A stretch of 64,000 nucleotides of DNA from Yuukianura sp. NJ FZ-2021 (GCA_046563655.1 CM102288.1:6200001-6264000); one strand, 5' to 3'; shown: positions 38,670 through 49,872, counted from the stretch's first letter. Notes: a model not told the origin generated them from the sequence alone. Numbers and translations are program-made.

Positions 38670-41037
38670 TTAAAGATAAAGTTTCGTTTTGTCAGGTACA
38701 CATTTTATTGCTAACATAGCATATAAAATTTTCACCCCCTTGTACCACGTAACTATTTTGGGTAGCATTACCTCTCCCAAAAACGCAAAAAAGGCGGGAA
38801 CGATGCAGGTCAAAAGAACAACAAACGTTACCCAGATTTTGTCACTGAGGTCAAGTGCTTTTACAACTGACTTTCTTTTCCTCGGAATTGTCGCATACGC
38901 TCTAACTAATTTGAAATACTCGTCCAGTTTTTGCCAAAGGTCAATAACTCCTGCCTCCTGCATCGATTTTATTCCAGGCCGTACTTTGGGGTCCGTCACA
39001 AACTCAAATTTCCATCCGTACGTTAAGTTACCTAGACTATCGGTACCCATCGTCAGAGTATCGCTACCGACATCCTCGGATATCTTCCAGTGTCGATACT
39101 CTTCGTCAATTATGTTGGACCAATCGGCATAGGCCGTCCCGCGGCAGTCTTTGACCAATTGAGTTAACCGATCACCATCCGTCATGTTTCTTGGGTAAAA
39201 TTTGTCCCAGGGGATGACCAAGTTGTCAATTACTTGTTTGGCAACTTTGGGGATAGCAAGGTTGCTGCTATTTCGTACAAACTGTTTGTAAGTCACATCC
39301 ATATTTGCGTAGAAAGCGTCCATAGCTGTGTATCCAGCGACATTTCGCATTATTGGGTAAACATATTGCTGGCCATAATCGGACATTATGTGAGTTGGGT
39401 ACCCCTTTTTCAGAATGGTACCGTTTTTGTCTACATACGGGCTCATCCAGCTGTAGAAGAACTTGTAAATGGCTTGTGATTCTGGACGGACATAGACTGT
39501 CAAGTTTTTGTCCATCAGCTGATCGAAAGTTGTAATCAACTTGGGATCTCTGGGAGCAACTATGTCCGTTGTAAACAAGCCTTTGTAACCATTGGTTACC
39601 ACAATTAAGGTTACGAGCAATGTGGTAGTGATGGGATACATAGCATTGAGGCGATACGGATTTGTAGCCGATGAGCAACTGTGGTCCAGCAATGCAGAGT
39701 ACGTCGTTTTGAATCCATTGCACTTCTTTTTGTTTAAACTCAAAGTGATATTCGTCACGGTACCGATTGCCAAAAGGGTACCAACCAACATGGCCCAAAT
39801 GGTACCGCTGAATGGAGAAACGAGGCTGTTGAAATCTGAAACTTCTTCTACAAGACCGTCACAAGTTAGGAATTGAAATTGGAGGCGCCTGGATTCAAAT
39901 ACATTGAAGTCCTTTTCTCCAAAAAACACCATGGGATACGCGATCCAGTAGCCTTGGTAAAAGCACGAGCCTAATTCATCCCAAACCGCACTTTTGTTTG
40001 TCATTACCTACAATATTACAAATATTCATCGAAATCAGTAGACTAGTTAAACATATTACTTTATATTATATAATAGCAGATATCGTATGATATAAACCTT
40101 TAAATATTCAAAACCTTACAGCTTGGAGCAATGTAGGTTCCCATGTACCACTGCGGTATCTTCCAGGCCTCGGTTTCTCCGGTATCGCGCGTCTGTAGGT
40201 AGTCCACTTGGAGTTTTGCTGTTGATCTAGTGCTTTCCAGACCGCCCTGATCTGGGTCAAATTTTTTGGGTGGGTCAACTCCACGAGAGGGTAAAAACAG
40301 TCGTTGCAATAGTGGCAAATCGTCCAAACCCGCTTAATTTCATACCGCCCGTTTACCCACGTCGTTGACTGGTTAATTAATGAGGTAGTTGACCCGTTGC
40401 CCAATGATTTACTTGGATGGTTGACCTTGACCAATGAGTAAACCACAAACTGGTCAACACCAATTATGCATCGGGCTTCTTCTGACGTCCCACCGTAAAA
40501 TGTGTTGATTGCTGTTTCGTTGTATGGTGCAACCAGAGAAAATATTGCCGAACGGTCAAAAAGAAAGCCTTTTCCGGCAGTAGAGAATCGCCACAGGTTC
40601 TCGGTACGCCAAAATTTTTGCCAGAACGGCATGTTTTCCGGTACTGGAAAGCGATAACCTATAGTATTAAAATACTTAAGCTTAACTTGACCTATAGGAA
40701 AGAGGTCAAATGATGTGAGCAGAAAGATGTAGTTGAAACACTTGAATCTGAAATAAATTTCCCGCCTTTTGGTTTGGCCGTGTGACTTCAACAGAGAGTG
40801 GGCATAGTACAAATATATTTCAAATGTAACATGCCACTCGGTAAAGATTATGACATTAGTAAAAATTATAGGGAATTTGAATGGTGTGAATTCAGTGTGA
40901 TTGTTGTAGTTGATTAAGTAAATGGAACACTCTGTTGTGAATGGACTAAACCACGGATTTAAGTCAATCTCCAATGAAGCAGCTGTAGGCAACGCACATA
41001 GTTTGTACAACAATAATAACCAAATTAGAGGAAACAT
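38670..41037 (-). CDS. Divergent ionotropic receptor (IR)-like membrane protein. Exons: 41037-40120, 40007-38670
   Basis: Signal peptide and a phase-0 GT-AG intron (40119-40008). iGluR/IR-like topology: FLTC..LVSPFSGTIW + TM1, a pore-like segment, TM2 followed by NGYKGLFTTDIVAP, MQEAGVIDLW, and a C-terminal TM (KIWVTFVVLLTCIVPAFFAFLGE). Confidence 0.7.
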
Positions 41038-42257
41038 GATAAAAACAAACTAGGTTTTACAGGACATTATAAGCATCAGTGTATATATAATAAACAAAAT
41101 ATTAGGTTTTGGTGCGACCAATCCTATAGGAATGCGGACAGACTGACAGTCGGACGGACAAAGTCGTATCAATAGTCCACTTCAGAATTCACTCCAGAAA
41201 ACAAAAGAGTTGTATCTTTGGGTGAACCACTGAAAAGATTAAACATGGTGAGTTCGTTCCTAAATTCACATTGAAACTTCAAAATTCACTTCAAAATTCT
41301 AGCACTACTTGTTTGGATTAACTTTACCAACTGTCGTGACCATCGTATGATTTTGAAAAATGTAATATTTTAACATATTCAAGTAGCAAATAGATTAAAA
41401 TAGACTTTATTGTACAATACGAAATGTGGGCGTATCATAAAAAATTCACATTCGAAACACGTAAAAGATAGTACCAAAAAATTCACATTTGATAGCAGGT
41501 CAAGGTTCATGTAAAATTTATATTTACAAGCACGATATCACTACAACTAATACACTAAAAGGTATTTAAAAGTATTATTATTTATATTGAAAATTCAAAA
41601 CCGACTCTTATTTTATTAAACTGAATTAGTTAAGTTTCGCAGTGTTTGTGTGTGTCAACCCATTTTCGTCACCTTGACCTCACTTGAAAATGAGAATTAC
41701 TAAAATATTTAATTCTTCACAAAAATGTAAAGCTAAAAACCTAAAACCCAAAATTTAGTATTAGTATATTGAAATGTACTATATTGAAATTTACTGTATT
41801 GAAATATTATAAAACTATTGAATACAAAAGTTTTTGATTTAAAAATATTCAGTTGTCGTTGTCGCTGCTTTATACTATACATGACAGCACGGCTTTCTCG
41901 GATTTCCGTTTTGTCTGAGGTTTAGTCACTCACAATCAGTAGTACTATAGAGACAAGCTCATGAGAAATTTGAGCGCGAATTTAAAAATTTCAGTAATTC
42001 TTTGTCTTCGTGTTCACCATTTGTGAATTTAAGTAAATAGTAACTAAGTAATTAGTGATTAATAGGTAATTATTCAATTACTAGACACAATTAGTAATCA
42101 GGTGATGCCGATTGAATTCGTGTTGATCAATAATTGGAATTGAAATTGATAACAAATTGTACGGATTTTATTGAGGTAACAAATCACAACTTCCTTGGAG
42201 CGTGAATAACAAATGGATCAAACAACTAATCGTTTTTTCATCGTTTTAGCAATTGAA

Positions 42258-42424
42258 CTAACCATAGTGTCCTCCCACTTTGTGTCTCACTCCCCAGGCG
42301 AAGTTGGCGTTATAATCGGTCTTCTGGAAAGTGTGGACGGGGCCAAGGTATCCGTAACCATGACCGTGACCTCCTTCGTGACCTCCGTCGTGACCTCTCC
42401 TAACTCGCAAGTGTGACTGGGGTA
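42258..42424 (-). CDS. Paralogous terminal exon (probable alternative 3' exon, isoform B) of the His/Gly-rich peptide gene
   Basis: Polypyrimidine acceptor TTCTTGTCCATCTCAG, in phase with the donor at 43308. Encodes (V)PQSHLRVRR-GHDGGHEGGHGHGYGYLGPVHTFQKTDYNANFAWGVRHKVGGHYG*, clearly homologous to the isoform A C-terminus. AATAAA lies ~90 bp downstream. Confidence 0.75.
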
Positions 42425-42740
42425 CTGAGATGGACAAGAACAAGTTATTTTGGTGGGAAGTAGGTAAGCTAGCTCATTTGTGTTGTTAGTTTTTAGTTAA
42501 TCGGGTCAAGCAGTCAAGTCAAGCTGTAAAGTAAACTACCCTACGGTATTTACTATTTGACTAGAAACTCCACTGGATTGACACTGTCAGAAGTCACTTC
42601 TCAGAGGGTTTAACTAGAATACTGACTAAAGTCAAAAGTCACAAGTCAAGAAACGTCGGCGTGTCGTTTGCGTTAAATAGTCAAGGTCAAGGTCACATCT
42701 TGGTCGGATTTAATTGTGGTAAGTCATGTCAGTCTTTTGC

Positions 42741-43468
42741 TTATCGTCCACTCCACCCTCCGCCGACTTTGTGTCTCACCTAAACAATTCAAGAACGTTT
42801 CAGTTTAAACAAAAAACGTTTCAGTTTTCAGAGTTTACGAATCAGCTGATCCGTGACTTACGCCGGTCTGGAAGTTGCCGTGGTAGTCTGTCCGTACAAA
42901 TGTGAATACTGGGCCGATGGGCTGACTATGTCCATGACCCTGTCCATGTCCATGTCCATGTCCATGACCATGTCCATGTGAGTCGTATGTCGGTTGTTGA
43001 TAAGTCTGGTGGTTGTGACCAAAAGCGCCTAACGGCTGAGCGGGATGGACGGAGCCCCGTCGTGTCCGAGTCACACCGTCAACTAAACCTACAATCGTAA
43101 ACAACTTTCTAACTAAAAGCGAACTACAAAGCCAAAAAGTCACTGACTTTATGTGACCTTTGACACAACTTTCCAAAACTACGACCACCATGCGCTAATT
43201 GAAATCTACAGGAATTCCATTTCTCTAGTTCCTAATGCCATTTTTGAAAAAGATCAACTTTTTTGAAAAATTAAAAGTTCTGAACACTTTCTAAAATTTC
43301 AGGTCACCTTGCGTGGGGTTTTCGTCGTGATCGAATTCCAATTGCGGGTAGGCGTGAGCCAGAGCGAATGCAGTCAGCAGCAGGAGAGAGGCAATTTTCA
43401 GCTGAAAAGTGAGTTGAAAAATTAACGGCTCAAATTTTGTTTAAAATTTGAAAACTTACAAAATCCAT
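42741..43468 (-). CDS. Small secreted His/Gly-rich pre-pro-peptide, isoform A. Exons: 43468-43460, 43401-43308, 43088-42862, 42779-42741
   Basis: Joined product MDF/LKIASLLLLTAFALAHAYPQLEFDHDENPTQ/GLVDGVTRTRR-GSVHPAQ...HGHGHGHGHGQGHGHSQPIGPVFTFVRTDYHGNFQTG/VRHKVGGGWSGR*. Junctions are canonical, with a TATA box upstream. Confidence 0.85.
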
Positions 43469-43522: not shown

Positions 43523-43558
43523 TCTGAACGGAGGTTTCTACAGAAAAGTTCTTTTATA
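43523..43558 (-). promoter_or_regulatory. Core promoter (TATA box + Inr-like) of the His/Gly-rich peptide gene
   Basis: Minus-strand TATAAAAG at 43558-43551, an Inr-like TTCAGA ~30 bp downstream of the TATA start, then the ATG at 43468. Confidence 0.6.
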
Positions 43559-44270: not shown

Positions 44271-47200
44271 CTACTGGTTTAAGTTAATTGGTTTTCTGAG
44301 AAGGTGGGGTTGTGCCTGAGCGGGTCTGTAGAACTGCTGCTCATCTTGTGCTGCTGTGTAGTACTGCTGGGGATACTGCTGAGGATGCTGCTGAAGATGC
44401 TGCTGAGAATACTGATGCTGCTGCAGTCTGAGCGGACTCTTGACCTTGACCTTCTCTTCCTCCGGAGCCTGCGTTGGAACTGGGAATTTGATCTTCACTT
44501 CCGTCGGCTCTCGAACCACTTTGGCCTGAAATCCATTCTTAGAATCCGCAGTGTACGTCACTGTGCGGACATAGCCGTCAGGATCAACCTAACCAAAGTA
44601 ATTACATTTGAATTAACTAATTAATTACAAGTAATTACTTAATTACTTAATTCGTAATTAAAATGTTGGCTTACAACGCTATAACTCCCCTTGATGACCC
44701 CACCATCTCTCTCCTCCTGCCTGTTCTGGTAGTTTGTCAACTCATCGTCTTTGACATCAAACGAAAAATTATACTGCGGATTCGGCTAAAAAATAAGAAA
44801 CAATTTTTTTAACATTTCAATCAACTTTTCGGACCAAATTGGATCAAAATTTTGTTTTTACATCTGCAGGGTACTCTTCTTCAGCGTCTGCTTCCTGTGC
44901 TGCCGTTTCCTGCACTGCGATTGGTCTGAGTCGATGTGGAACTGCTGCTGGTTTGACATGCGGCCGCACTACTGGAATTGGTTTCTTGTTTCCCGCCCCC
45001 AGTTGCCCCTCGGGGTAAAATCGGGGGTCAAGCAGTTGACCTTGACCTTGACCTGGGGCCAGGCTGTACACCACTTGCTGAGCCTCGCTCGCTGGAACTG
45101 GCACCAATCGCAAGCGTTTCAGCGCTGAAGCTGGGTAGGCCCGCACGAGCTGTCCATTCTTGACAAATAAAAAAAAACGTTTCTTTTTTCGTTTTCAAAA
45201 CGTTTTGTGCTTTTGTTTTCAGAAGTTATGAAAGCTAGAGGCACAAACTTGTACAAGTTTGTGTCTTTAGTTTTCATAGCTTTTGAAAGAAATTGGACCC
45301 ACATAGCCAGCATAATTTGGGAGAGTTTTGGGAAATATAGTATTACTCGGGGAAATAACTTTTACGGATATTTGAGGATATTTTTAATCGGAAAATGTCC
45401 GGGCCATTTACAAACCTGGGATCATTCGTTATTTTGGGAGAAAATTTTCGAACTAATTTGGTCCACTTGCGATATTTGTCTGGTAAATACTATTCTGGGT
45501 TAATTCCAAAAGTAGTATTTGGCCCAAGTTTGGTGTGAGTACTTCCGGGTGTATTACGGCATGGGAAGTTTGGGCCATTTAAACTACGCCGATATTTTCT
45601 GAGTGAAATCACACTTGTTTGGGCCAAGTGCGGGAATCACCAAAAATTAAAATGCATAAAAGGATGACGCAACATCCACCTTCCTCGTGCTCACACTCCA
45701 AACTTCTTCCGTTAGGAGCTCATTTCAGTGTTTTTGGTAGATTCTTTAGTCTGACAGTCATGGACCGATTGTATTCGGTTGTCAGTTTTCCGTTAGAAAA
45801 TTCAGTGGAAGCTGTTCCTTCTAGCTGGTTGTCAGAAGACAGAACCGTTTGCCAGTACCCAACTGGTCCAACTGCTCAGCAATTGATAAAGAAGTGCGCT
45901 CTTCCATTGGATTCATGGCCAGTACATCCTTGTGTTGAACTAAGAGGAGGCAGTAAGTACAATTTTTGTATTTTTGAACAGGGTAATCTAGATTTGATGT
46001 GAAATGTAAACATTCAGTAATATCTAATCAGGTGTATCACGTTTTTTTTTTCAGAAAATCGGAAAGAAGCAGTCCGTTTGGCAAAGCGTGCGCTTGTAAC
46101 TGATGACTTTTTGAGTGAACGCAGTGATATCGAAAACGATATTCGTAATCGTGAACCACCGACAAGTTCAAAGGAACCGGAACAACGTGGCGAGGTGACA
46201 GAAGGTAATACCTTAAATGTATTTGTTTACTATCCAAAATATTATATCCTTTGCTGTAGTAGAATTGCCTAATAAATAACTAAACCCGATTCTATTTGCA
46301 GAAACTTGTTTCACTGGAAATATTGAAGTCATTACCCCTGCATGCATCATTGCTACATCAGCTGAGTTTACCGGATTTGTGGAAGAATTTCGAGGTATAA
46401 AATAATTAGAATTTGTACCAACCAACTATTTAACTACTCCCATGTTAAACCAATGAATTTTTCTCTTCTAGCATTTCAAGAACATGTGATCACAACTCTT
46501 GTCGATTTGAAGGAAACCCTGGCACATTTACTTAATTCAAGGAACGATCAATTTGGCAACGACTTTACCATTGCTAAAAACGCACTAGAACAGTTCGCCT
46601 TGCCTTTGACGTCGCCCACCCGGTTGGATGAACTAATCAAATGGACCAAATCTTGCGATGAAAACAGAAACTTTTTTGTAAGACATGTTATGCTTTTCTC
46701 TATACAACTGTAACGATTTGTTTTTGAAAGTAGGAACTAACGTTGTCCGTTACATTACTTTAGGTGACCGTATTTAGTGCACAAGGGGGAAAAACTGTTC
46801 GTGAGGCCATTGATCGTATTATGAAAAAATTGTTTACGAAAGAACTGGCACAAACTTTCAGTTTAACTGGAAAGCGGTCACGTGGAAGTGTAGAGAAGTC
46901 GTCCCTACAAGCTACTGGAGTGTTGGAGCTAATTCTTGGTAAAAAATTAAGTTTTAAATTAAATAGCCTGAGGCTAACCTAACCAAATTACATTTGATTG
47001 TATTATACAAATCACTAAATATTATTAACAGAAAACCTGAAATGCATTAAATCATCTTACATAATTACCAAATTACACTTATCGTAATTTCTTTGTTACA
47101 GAAAGCCTGAGATGCAATAAGGAAACCAAAGAATTTACAGAAGCCGAAATCGAAAAAGGAGTCGCAAAGTATCTCAACGGAATTGGGGACAAGTACGGTG

Positions 47201-49872
47201 GAAGAGAAGTTCGCAGAAATCGACAAGTTCAGAATGAGCTCCCCGCAGGCTCAGCAACGGCGGAAGCGACGCGAAATTAACAAAATTCTTTCAGATATTA
47301 GAAATCCTAAGTCCAGTAAGTCAACTTTAGCTCTACCTACTGCAGATGTCCCATACGTACCCGAAAACGTTTCTAACGACCCGGTTTCACAAAGTTCAAG
47401 TTCTCTACCGACTGATTTAAATTCTTGCACTCAAGTGAGTACGCCAGAAATAACGACTTCAAATTATTCTAGTGAGGAGAAGTTAACTTTTGTTCAGGAA
47501 CTGTCTACTTGGAGCGTAACGTATAACATTCCACATGTCGCAGTTTCTTCTTTGCTGAAAATTTTAGCTATTCGTCTTCCAAATGAGAATATACCTTTAG
47601 ACGCTAGAACTTTGCTACAAACACCAAGAAATCTTAGTTACAAGAATTTGGAGGGTGGGAACTTTTTTTATTTCGGTTTAACGGAAGAGTTGGTACGCCG
47701 GGTTACTAACAATTTTTCAGCAATTACTGACAACAATCTTACGGTGTCAATAGGAATTGATGGTCTCCCACTTAACAAAAGTGATGACACTCAATTTTGG
47801 CCTATTCAAGCCAAATTGGATCAAATATGTAATGACGAACCGTGGATTGTTGCCATTTTTGTTGGTTTAACAAAACCCCAATGCCTGAACTCATACCTTA
47901 ATGATTTCGTTTCGGAGTTTAGTCACTTAAAAAGTAACGGAGTTACAGTGTGTAACAAAAACTTTCGTTTTGATATTAGTTGCGTTGTCGCTGACGCGCC
48001 TGCGCGAAGTTTTGTTAAAAGTATCAAAGGACATAATGCATATTACGGATGTGAACGATGTCTAACCAAAGGTACATATTACCTAGGAAGTGTAAGGTTC
48101 CCAGTTGACGATTCCCTGCCACGAACTGACAGCAACTTTGCCGAAAAATTTCAACCACAGCATCATGACGGTGATTCACCGCTGACAAGATGTGGGTTCG
48201 GAATGGTTTCAAAGTTTCCCCTTGACTACATGCACAGTGTGTGTCTCGGCGTCATGAAAAAGTTGCTGGGGCAGTGGTTAAATGGGAATCTTAGACTACG
48301 CAGGACGGATCGTCTTCTCATTAGTACAACACTTCTAAGTTTACGTGCATTTATTCCAAACGAATTTAGTAGAAAATGTCGGGAGTTAAAATACTTCAAG
48401 TACTTTAAAGCTACCGAATTTCGCTTGTTTCTGCTCTATACCGGTTATGTGGTACTCAAACACCGGCTAAGCAAAACGCTCTTTCAGCACTTCACAAAAC
48501 TGCACTGCGCAATGCACATCTTACTTTCCTTCCACTCGAGAAATATTTCAATGCTTAATGCTGCTCGAAATCTGCTTGTTGATTTTGCAAAAGAGGCGCA
48601 AACTATTTACGGTCAACAGTTTCTTGTCTATAATGTTCATTCTTTAATTCACTTGGCTGATGACGCTGAAAAGTTTGGACCTCTGGATTCTGTCTCTGCT
48701 TTTGACTTTGAAAATTCAATGCAGAAATTATTAAAAATGATACGTGGCAAACATTACCAACAACTACAGCAAGTGACGCGCAGAATCTTTGAAAGGGTTA
48801 AAATTCAAAATTTACTGCCAAGCAAAGAGCCATTGGTTAGGAATTTTAAATGTGGCGTAGCGTATAAGAATGTTAAAGTTTCTAACAGCGAAGGGGACAA
48901 TTGTTTTTTGACAAAAGCTGGAAAATTAATTGTTATTACGAAGGTAGTTAAGGAAGTAAGACCGGAGTGTGAATTAGATGCTGTTAAAATACACTATAAG
49001 TTAGCAATTACTAAAGATTTAAAAAATTATCCTGTAAAAAGTTCGGAGTTAGAGATTTTCAAAGTCGTTGGATTTAAAAAATTAGACACAGGTACTCTAA
49101 GTATGTTAAAAAGAAAATGTGTTATGTTACCTAGCCATAAAAACTCCAGAACACGAATTAATTATGTCTGTATCCCATTTACTACATTACTGTGAAATAA
49201 AAGTTATTTCCATGTCAAATTTTCCCGTGAGTATCAATTATTTTGATATATTAAAAGATAATTGGTCCTAAAGATAAAAGTTTAATGGGCCACATAAAGA
49301 AATATTAAAGGGACCTAATTCCGGACAAATATTTTTTCAATATTTGGGCCTCATCTCAAATCAGGATAAGGACCAGATATGAGTTGGGAAGTGTGGAACT
49401 ATTTCGGACCAGCTTCAAACATTGTTGGGAGAAGTGTGGGAAGTCCCACTTGGGCCGCACTTGGGATCGCAGACAAAACACTTTTATTCCCAAACATCTA
49501 AAATTTTATTTGGCCCAAAAAACTCCCAAAGATCCGTGGCTATGTGGGGAGTTTTGAAAGTTAAAAGATTTGAAATTTTGAAAATTTGATTGAATTTTGA
49601 AATGTTTTAGGTTGAAAGTTTTACCTTGCCGGCTACAAGTTGTGGTTGGGGTTGCTGAATGTACTGCCCGGGAGAGTATGCTTGAAATACTTCGTCTGAC
49701 CTGAGCTGACCGTCGTTCTGACCCACGGCCCACCCAACTGAAGCCACCAACAAAGTGGGCAGTAGCAAGTAAACCTAACAATGAATTAGTTTAATTACAT
49801 TATTTATAAATTTAATTATATTATTTTAATTGTAATTTAATGTTTGGCTATTGTTCTTACGTAGTGTGCCAT
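44271..49872 (-). CDS. Cuticular protein, RR-2 (Rebers-Riddiford chitin-binding). Exons: 49872-49861, 49774-49625, 45158-44862, 44785-44675, 44588-44271; intron 2 contains a transposon
   Basis: Signal peptide MAHY/VYLLLPTLLVASVGWAVG. Extended R&R consensus PNPQYNFSFDVKDDELTNYQNRQEERDGGVIKGSYSV/VDPDGYVRTVTYTADSKNGFQAKV, then a Gln-rich tail. All junctions are phase 0. Confidence 0.92.
45760..47280 (+). CDS. Transposon accessory gene, DUF4806-like. Exons: 45760-45952, 46055-46204, 46302-46394, 46472-46677, 46764-46938, 47102-47280
   Basis: Phase-consistent GT-AG splicing with no stops. N-terminal YSVVSF..SVEAVPSSWL and C-terminal GGKTVREAIDRIMKKLFTKELAQTFSLTGKR...EIEKGVAKYL..DKYGGR resemble the accessory proteins of animal EnSpm-like elements. 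Confidence 0.75.
47234..49195 (+). CDS. EnSpm/CACTA-type DDE transposase, intact (~650 aa), intronless
   Basis: Motifs LDARTLL, IGIDGLPL..QFWPI, VADAPARSFVK.IKGHNAYYGCERC, FPLDYMHSVCLGVMKKL, KATEFRLFLLY, YNVHSLIHL, SAFDFEN. Confidence 0.92.
   Translation: MSSPQAQQRRKRREINKILSDIRNPKSSKSTLALPTADVPYVPENVSNDPVSQSSSSLPTDLNSCTQVSTPEITTSNYSSEEKLTFVQELSTWSVTYNIPHVAVSSLLKILAIRLPNENIPLDARTLLQTPRNLSYKNLEGGNFFYFGLTEELVRRVTNNFSAITDNNLTVSIGIDGLPLNKSDDTQFWPIQAKLDQICNDEPWIVAIFVGLTKPQCLNSYLNDFVSEFSHLKSNGVTVCNKNFRFDISCVVADAPARSFVKSIKGHNAYYGCERCLTKGTYYLGSVRFPVDDSLPRTDSNFAEKFQPQHHDGDSPLTRCGFGMVSKFPLDYMHSVCLGVMKKLLGQWLNGNLRLRRTDRLLISTTLLSLRAFIPNEFSRKCRELKYFKYFKATEFRLFLLYTGYVVLKHRLSKTLFQHFTKLHCAMHILLSFHSRNISMLNAARNLLVDFAKEAQTIYGQQFLVYNVHSLIHLADDAEKFGPLDSVSAFDFENSMQKLLKMIRGKHYQQLQQVTRRIFERVKIQNLLPSKEPLVRNFKCGVAYKNVKVSNSEGDNCFLTKAGKLIVITKVVKEVRPECELDAVKIHYKLAITKDLKNYPVKSSELEIFKVVGFKKLDTGTLSMLKRKCVMLPSHKNSRTRINYVCIPFTTLL

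Follow-up and report, generated by a model that had tools for sequence, protein, structure and literature searches.

Alternative 3' coding exons are known from peptide genes such as the CHH genes and calcitonin/CGRP. The CHH and ITP peptides are Cys-rich with a conserved six-cysteine pattern, and in ITP the alternative exons affect a single peptide and exchange no more than its C-terminal part. The abstract of PMC11035804 describes ITP and ITP-L as variants that arise by alternative splicing. The gene described here lies on the minus strand of a 64-kb window of Yuukianura sp. NJ FZ-2021 (GCA_046563655.1 CM102288.1:6200001-6264000); the window is that whole stretch of DNA, and all positions are counted within it. 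Behind a signal/pro exon, this gene has two candidate 3' coding ends, A and B. ITP/ITP-L and CHH resemble it in having common 5' signal exons, alternative downstream coding exons and two secreted peptides, one amidated. The gene differs from ITP in that each alternative end would carry its own cleavage site and an entire mature peptide. ITP, CHH and calcitonin/CGRP showed no sequence relation to the window gene; Cys is absent from the translations of the A and B exons, and the six-Cys pattern of CHH/ITP was not present.

In composition, there are likenesses to other arthropod proteins. Holotricin-3 and tenecin-3 are Gly/His-rich antimicrobial peptides, and armadillidin is C-terminally amidated. 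Armadillidin is described as a Gly/His-rich arthropod antimicrobial peptide in the abstract of PMC5031766, and histidine-rich cuticular proteins are described in that of PMC8062583.

The locus is probably one gene, with a single promoter and a single signal/pro exon and with two alternative 3' coding ends that would give two secreted precursors. The donor at 43308 would be joined either to exon A1 (A1 plus A2, a 122-aa precursor) or, with A skipped, to exon B (an 89-aa precursor); we infer the exon 2-to-B junction from the genomic sequence. The consensus of furin-type convertases is R-x-K/R-R, and a terminal Gly(-Arg) is the signal for amidation by PAM. Each precursor would lose its signal peptide, a furin-type convertase would cut after RTRR or RVRR, and the G-R end of A and the G end of B would be trimmed and probably amidated. 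The mature products would be of about 75 residues (A) and about 44 residues (B); in each, a His/Gly-rich head that varies would be followed by a conserved tail some 30 residues long. Terminal-exon choice is a known route to two peptides; the twist is that a separate cleavage site and the whole of a mature peptide would come with each end. The splicing logic proposed here is thus a familiar one, and what seems not to have been described before is the peptide family.

Structure of the gene

The signal peptide was judged by eye. All features below are on the minus strand, and a slash marks a splice or cleavage point. A TATA-like box (TATAAAA, 43552-43558) was read directly about 85 nt upstream of the ATG and is the putative promoter element. 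Coding exon 1 (43460-43468) starts with the ATG at 43468 and consists of the ATG and two codons (ATG-GAT-TTT, M-D-F); its phase 0 donor is TTT/gtaagt, and the sequence at the donor is ATGGATTTT/gtaagt. After an intron of 58 nt, exon 2 (43308-43401) codes for the rest of the signal peptide, with the h-region LLLLTAFALA and a cleavage site judged to be A-H-A/Y, and for the acidic pro-piece PQLEFDHDE... Exon 2 is common to both branches and ends in the phase-1 donor AAG/gtgacc.

Exon A1 (42862-43088) has the phase-1 acceptor ttgtag/G at 43088 and the phase 0 donor GGC/gtaagt. It encodes RTRR, a Gln/His/Gly-rich tract with (HG)n (HGHGHG) and the first part of the motif shared with B, GPVFTFVRTDYHGNFQTG. 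Exon A2 (42741-42779) supplies the rest of the motif, VRHKVGGGWSGR, followed by the stop codon, and branch A ends in SGR-stop. The extra intron of branch A (42861-42780, phase 0) splits the shared motif between G and V. Reading A without this second intron was rejected; such a frame ended as ...QTGVSHGSADS-stop in the window and stopped after one more codon in the related species described below, and it was not conserved. Exon B (42258-42424) is a single exon with the phase-1 acceptor ...tccatctcag/TA at 42424, preceded by the pyrimidine tract ttgttcttgtccatctcag. It encodes RVRR, a Gly/His tract (GGH/GHG), the complete motif without an intron, and a terminal Gly, ending in YG-stop. The poly(A) signal AATAAA (42167-42172) lies about 85 nt past the B stop. 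A spacer of 316 nt (42425-42740) separates A from B and would serve as the A 3' untranslated region, as the last part of the intron preceding B, or as both.

The sequence-only reading had proposed that the donor at 43308 fits both acceptors, 43088 for A and 42424 for B. This was borne out, as both phases match and both splicings are open: exon 1, exon 2, A1 and A2 joined give an open frame of 122 aa, and exon 1, exon 2 and B give one of 89 aa. The R-x-R-R sites, the His/Gly tracts and the shared motif that it had placed in both branches were read in the sequence, the A motif requiring the one further intron, and so were the endings SGR* and YG*.

Within the intron private to A (42780-42861), a 16-nt unit is repeated at a spacing of 21 nt (42791-42806 and 42812-42827; 94% alike).

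Conservation of both ends in a related species

Metagenome contigs were scanned with an alignment of 13 rows, which yielded 19 loci. One of them, L002, is a 2798-nt contig that carries the orthologous locus of a related species, and it is the reference for all two-species comparisons with the window. Its order is TATA box, ATG exon (5 codons, /gtgagt), exon 2, A1, A2 and B, with matching donor and acceptor phases. The exon 2 of L002 ends in a phase-1 donor. Its A1 (667-899) has RTRR, the motif intron is at the same position, and A2 (985-1029) ends in GGR-stop. The A-B spacer is 381 nt long, and B (1411-1595) has the phase-1 acceptor ...tccgtcctcag/TT and ends in HHG-stop, with ATTAAA/AATAAA about 130 nt downstream of the stop. 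RFRR stands six residues into L002 B, and this spacing of 6 residues from acceptor to RxRR is the same as in the window B. Both splicings are open in L002, giving 130 aa (A) and 99 aa (B). The genomic prerequisites for two mRNAs with common 5' exons and different 3' coding exons were therefore found in both the window and L002.

The window exon 2 was homologous to exons 1 and 2 of L002 (local score 53, against 18.3 +/- 3.8 for shuffles, with 0 of 2000 shuffles as high). Between the window and L002, A had 66 of 86 residues identical, with a proportion of replacement change (pN) of 0.148 and of synonymous change (pS) of 0.771. B had 42 of 53 aligned residues identical (pN 0.118, pS 0.812), and 25 consecutive residues of its motif were identical. 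Exons 1 and 2 had 11 of 34 residues identical (pN 0.38, pS 0.63). The values for B and A are based on 53 and 86 codons, respectively, and the excess of synonymous change was significant in both (Fisher p 2e-15 for B and 2e-19 for A). Synonymous sites are saturated in A and B between the window and L002. Because synonymous sites are saturated yet replacements are rare, both ends are under strong purifying selection, and B appears to be a live coding exon that is translated in both lineages, and not a dead copy.

The intron between exon 2 and A1 was no more alike in the two species than shuffles. The A-B spacers aligned with a global score of 30, against -7.9 +/- 6.5 for shuffles, and their conserved blocks were mostly in the first 120 nt past the A stop. 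In the L002 spacer, at about 1320-1345, the sequence CCATTTTAG/TATCCCGATCTCA resembles the window B acceptor; the working B acceptor of L002 is some 75 nt further downstream. The AG of this sequence at about 1336, which the MAFFT pairing of the spacers offered as a B acceptor, was rejected, as its phase does not match that of the exon-2 donor and the frame, as read here, runs into a stop. The likeness may be due to chance, or the sequence may be the remnant of an acceptor.

Search for a separate start for B

The stop-to-stop frame of B contains no Met, and because of this B cannot initiate translation alone. No start exon was found in the 316-nt spacer of the window, whose three ATGs open only 5, 1 and 2 codons; the sequence-only reading, which had seen no separate ATG/signal exon before B, was correct in this. 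Nor was one found in the 381-nt spacer of L002, in which the ATGs open 14, 14 and 18 codons without a hydrophobic run. In the 800 nt of the window between the upstream cuticle gene and the ATG at 43468, none of the ATG frames contained a hydrophobic stretch. The intron before A1 has a single ATG frame with such a stretch (ATG at 43191), and it leads into A1, not B. Exon 2 would be the only signal-coding exon available to B, and its phase fits B in both species.

An inverted repeat of 19 nt (42481-42499 and 43110-43128, 84% complementary) has its arms just upstream of the B and A acceptors, and its pairing would loop out A. As a docking/selector RNA pairing, it was rejected: it has no counterpart in L002 and is probably due to chance.

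Likeness of A and B

In a tblastn search of B against the whole 64-kb window, only A matched besides B itself. B matched A1 with an E value of 6.5e-5 (59% over 22 aa); the match to A2 (7/7, VRHKVGG) had an E value of 4.2 and was not significant alone. The likeness of A and B exceeds chance. At the DNA level it is confined to the coding motif, and the duplication would therefore be old.

The arthropod peptide family

Relatives were searched for with phmmer, using B as the query against 1.84 billion representative proteins (E <= 1e-3). The search returned 119 clusters (at 50% identity; P0003-P0121), with a best E value of 1.9e-11. A word-index protein search with B found no relative in either of two length bands, and this blank was attributed to the index. 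All 119 relatives are small, with lengths of 49-283 aa. In nearly all of them the match is at the C-terminal end, and a few predicted proteins extend 20-77 residues past it. Relatives that look full-length start with a signal peptide, which is followed by an acidic piece (often ...F-I-L-D-D-G/E...), R-x-R-R, a variable low-complexity stretch and the motif. The low-complexity stretch is His/Gly-rich, Asp/His-rich or Pro/Tyr/Ala-rich.

The family consensus is ...R-x-R-R...VGPVYTFVKTDxxANFKWGVRHxVGxxYG(R/K). The C-terminal motif of about 30 residues, GPV-x-T-x-x-K/R-TD-xxx-N-x-x-W-G-V/A-R/K-H-x-V/A-G, is present in B. A pattern for the core caught 116 of the 119 relatives; in the other 3, Arg stands in place of the Asn or His that the pattern requires. 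Each of the 116 pattern-positive members has one core motif per protein, and the 3 escapees show one by eye. In the 108-row alignment, G27, P28, T35 and G50 were invariant, and R9, V29, T31, K34, D36, K42, W43, G44, R46 and H47 were nearly invariant. All of the invariant and near-invariant positions are present in B except K42, which is Ala in B (NFAWG). A matches the family motif except for W to T and K to Q (NFQTG replacing NFKWG).

An R-x-K/R-R site was found 14-90 residues upstream of the TD core in 83 of the 116 members, many of the rest being truncated open-frame fragments, and RVRR was the commonest cleavage site (37/116). The cleavage site noted earlier in A and B is thus close to family-wide, and its last Arg is nearly invariant in the alignment. 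The tail ends in Gly or in Gly plus Arg/Lys in 66 of the 116. The amidation signal that the sequence-only reading had proposed is present in both window branches (G-R-stop in A, G-stop in B) and in L002 (G-G-R-stop and H-G-stop); it is not universal in the family. The window A and B have RTRR or RVRR upstream of the motif, a signal/acidic piece on a separate exon and one motif per proposed isoform.

The window gene and the family share the signal, the acidic pro-piece, R-x-R-R, the low-complexity stretch, the C-terminal motif and, often, the Gly(+basic) end. The window gene differs in that two members would stand on one signal/pro exon rather than in two complete genes. Its A branch differs further in the private motif intron and in the replacement of a near-invariant Trp and Lys, and its low-complexity stretch is His/Gly-rich, whereas that of many relatives is Pro/Tyr/Ala-rich or Asp/His-rich. 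The private intron lies next to the site at which Thr has taken the place of the near-invariant Trp, and L002 has an intron at the same position. No other family member seen has an intron at the G/V position of the motif, and for this reason the intron looks like a gain after the A/B duplication.

That the motif could not be assigned to a named family, as had been stated from the sequence, held in the databases searched. None of 108 family members matched Pfam-A at E <= 0.001. No Pfam family, Chitin_bind_4 included, was found for exon 2, A1 or B even at E <= 10, and 10 relatives gave only sub-threshold noise. The family profile had no match in the PDB at E <= 1. In the Atlas, the clusters nearest to one full-length member were 100% Eukaryota, most commonly Arthropoda, and were named 'hypothetical' or 'uncharacterized'. 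A literature search by motif text found no relevant paper, and sequences given only in figures or supplements would escape such a search. The term 'Histidine-rich' in a Daphnia paper (PMC10253896) was set aside as an unrelated annotation. Taken from these sequences, the family appears to be real, wide across arthropods and unnamed as far as checked.

Other family loci and phylogenetic tree

Four other loci (L003, L004, L005 and L009) have an exon with a signal and PRYFI(I/L)DDGE, an intron, and then an exon with (A)SPMVRVRRD... and the motif. Because they are split there, the junction between exon 2 and A or B is at an intron position common to other family genes. Locus L006 has two complete family genes in tandem (292-582 and 1217-1410), the second with its own signal and FILDDE exon about 620 nt past the first stop. 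L012 has a second copy of the last exon (475-650) about 375 nt after the first. Its frame is shifted and broken by stops in the part from RVRR to the motif, and the contig showed no signal exon ahead of this second copy. It would be a decaying orphan exon or an assembly error; as the former, it would mean that orphan copies do arise, and the L012 copy would be decaying, unlike B.

L019 has a B-like gene in a single open frame, with its own TATA box, and its protein is P0003. TATAAAA-type boxes stand 125-150 nt ahead of the ATGs in both L002 and L019. The N-terminus of L019 was homologous to exons 1 and 2 of L002 (score 43, against 17.9 +/- 3.5 for shuffles, 0 of 2000 as high), which suggests that a B-type peptide behind such a signal/pro piece is a real product elsewhere. 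L019 may represent the ancestral state, in which B was a gene of its own, or may have arisen by retro-copying of a message that joined exons 1 and 2 to B.

The phylogenetic tree was built on 33 columns only, and many of its forks were open. The window A grouped with the L002 A (99/91), and P0007 joined them (100/90). The window B grouped with the L002 B (99/94). A and B were not sisters. Because each branch pairs with its L002 counterpart, the A/B split would predate the two species, and A and B would be old paralogues. The earlier proposal of a switch between two duplicated exons stands in part: B appears live, its acceptor phase fits exon 2 and the layout is kept in L002. A recent duplication, which such wording might suggest, does not stand, as A and B are old non-sister paralogues in the tree.

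Alternative explanations

Several observations weigh against a gene with two alternative ends. The candidate poly(A) signal of branch A, ATTAAA (42709-42714, minus strand, 27 nt past the A stop), is rated weak because it is not kept in L002, where only AATGAA stands. Because of this weak signal, A transcripts may often extend across B, and splicing of either kind would then be possible. A phase-1 GT inside A2 in both species could join A2 to B in frame. Exons 1 and 2 of the window were not significantly similar to the L019 N-terminus (137 of 2000 shuffles as high), and the tree leaves open whether L019/P0003 is a true B orthologue. The amidation signal is absent in 50 of the 116 family members, with endings such as ...KYAS, ...KYV and ...YAGGYH. 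An AlphaFold2 model of B with 108 rows had a mean predicted local distance difference test score (pLDDT) of 56.6, a predicted template modelling score (pTM) of 0.15 and no secondary structure; because the model is of low confidence, it gives no structural support for any function.

The GT inside A2 bears on a tandem two-peptide precursor, in which a weak phase-1 donor in A2 (after TGG A) would be joined to the B acceptor and furin would free both peptides. In both species this GT stands 28 nt into A2 (GGA/GTGGAC in the window, GGA/GTGCAG in L002), and the Ser at this position is coded AGT in both despite the synonymous saturation elsewhere. Joined in this way, A2 and B keep an open frame as far as the B stop; the window precursor would have 174 aa, made up of A followed by a short linker, RVRR and B, and that of L002 would have 186 aa. 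Branch A is without a canonical AATAAA, having the variant ATTAAA in the window and AATGAA in L002. However, the A2 donors GTGGAC and GTGCAG lack the +4 A found in 5 of the 6 gene-model donors (the sixth being the L002 A1 donor GTATAA), two core motifs occur in 0 of the 116 family proteins examined, and the normal ending of A (SGR-stop, and AGGR-stop in L002) is a Gly-Arg end that both species conserve, so that a two-peptide precursor is improbable. Just as improbable is that B belongs to a separate transcription unit, with its first exon or exons beyond the stretches examined, or is joined to the exons of another gene, its fit to exon 2 being a leftover of ancestry. Tandem whole-gene copies with their own signal exons do occur in the family (L006), as does, in another species, a B-like gene that has a promoter and a signal to itself (L019), but no signal-type start exon was found in either spacer or, in the window, in the 800 nt up to the cuticle gene. 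The spacer, moreover, is just 316-381 nt long and must also hold the A 3' end, and the phase 1 and the acceptor-to-RxRR spacing of B are kept in both species. The second copy in L012, frame-shifted and without its own signal exon, shows that orphan copies can arise and decay. That B is itself a decaying duplicate exon without a product is, nevertheless, close to excluded, since B is intact in two species (pN 0.118 against pS 0.812, p 2e-15, and 25 consecutive motif residues identical), both of which keep its acceptor, phase, RxRR and terminal Gly. One gene with two alternative 3' ends is thus the explanation preferred here.

Possible function

The sequence-only reading had suggested probably metal-binding peptides that could harden the cuticle or be antimicrobial, and these readings stand as hypotheses. 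The two products of such a gene lean towards a function as an extracellular ligand or matrix-binding peptide, with the conserved tail as the recognition element. The strict conservation of the tail together with the lack of predicted structure would fit a peptide recognised by a partner. To our knowledge, a conserved furin-type site is not usual in structural cuticle proteins. In our judgement, the Pro/Tyr/Ala-rich or His-rich low-complexity stretches of the family resemble cuticle proteins in composition. Both the cuticle-like heads and the neighbouring gene with Chitin_bind_4 point towards the cuticle or matrix, and the frequent amidation signal points towards signalling; a cuticle-associated role is held to be somewhat likelier than a hormonal one. 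A, B and exon 2 are without Chitin_bind_4 (PF00379), unlike Rebers-Riddiford cuticular proteins.

Like the Gly/His-rich antimicrobial peptides, A and B are Cys-free, Gly/His-rich and, as predicted, secreted; this likeness is in composition only. The family tail is nearly invariant across arthropods, whereas immune peptides are in general fast-evolving. Because the motif is strictly conserved, a fast-evolving antimicrobial role would fit poorly, and it fits the least well of the roles considered.

A wider picture, possible but short of probable, is that of a so far undescribed, arthropod-wide family of furin-released, often amidated extracellular peptides whose nearly invariant tail of 30 residues would be recognised by a receptor or matrix partner, and two of which one gene of a branchiopod-like lineage would long have delivered by terminal-exon choice. 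With at least 119 clusters, the family is a concrete orphan peptide set that could be studied in moulting, in the formation of cuticle, in immunity or in signalling. The A/B pair, itself conserved, is a natural experiment, with the same signal/pro-piece and two different peptides.

Neighbouring open frames

The upstream neighbour on the same strand (44271-45194, minus strand) has a Chitin_bind_4 match at 44271-44588 (E 1.7e-7) and a Gln/Pro-rich tail. Just downstream of the peptide gene (38670-41049, minus strand) are open frames of 445 and 313 aa, without a Pfam match at E <= 0.01. On the plus strand, a 694-aa open frame (47111-49195) has sub-threshold matches to DUF1258 (E 5e-4) and DUF4218 (E 4e-3) and is possibly a transposon-derived gene.

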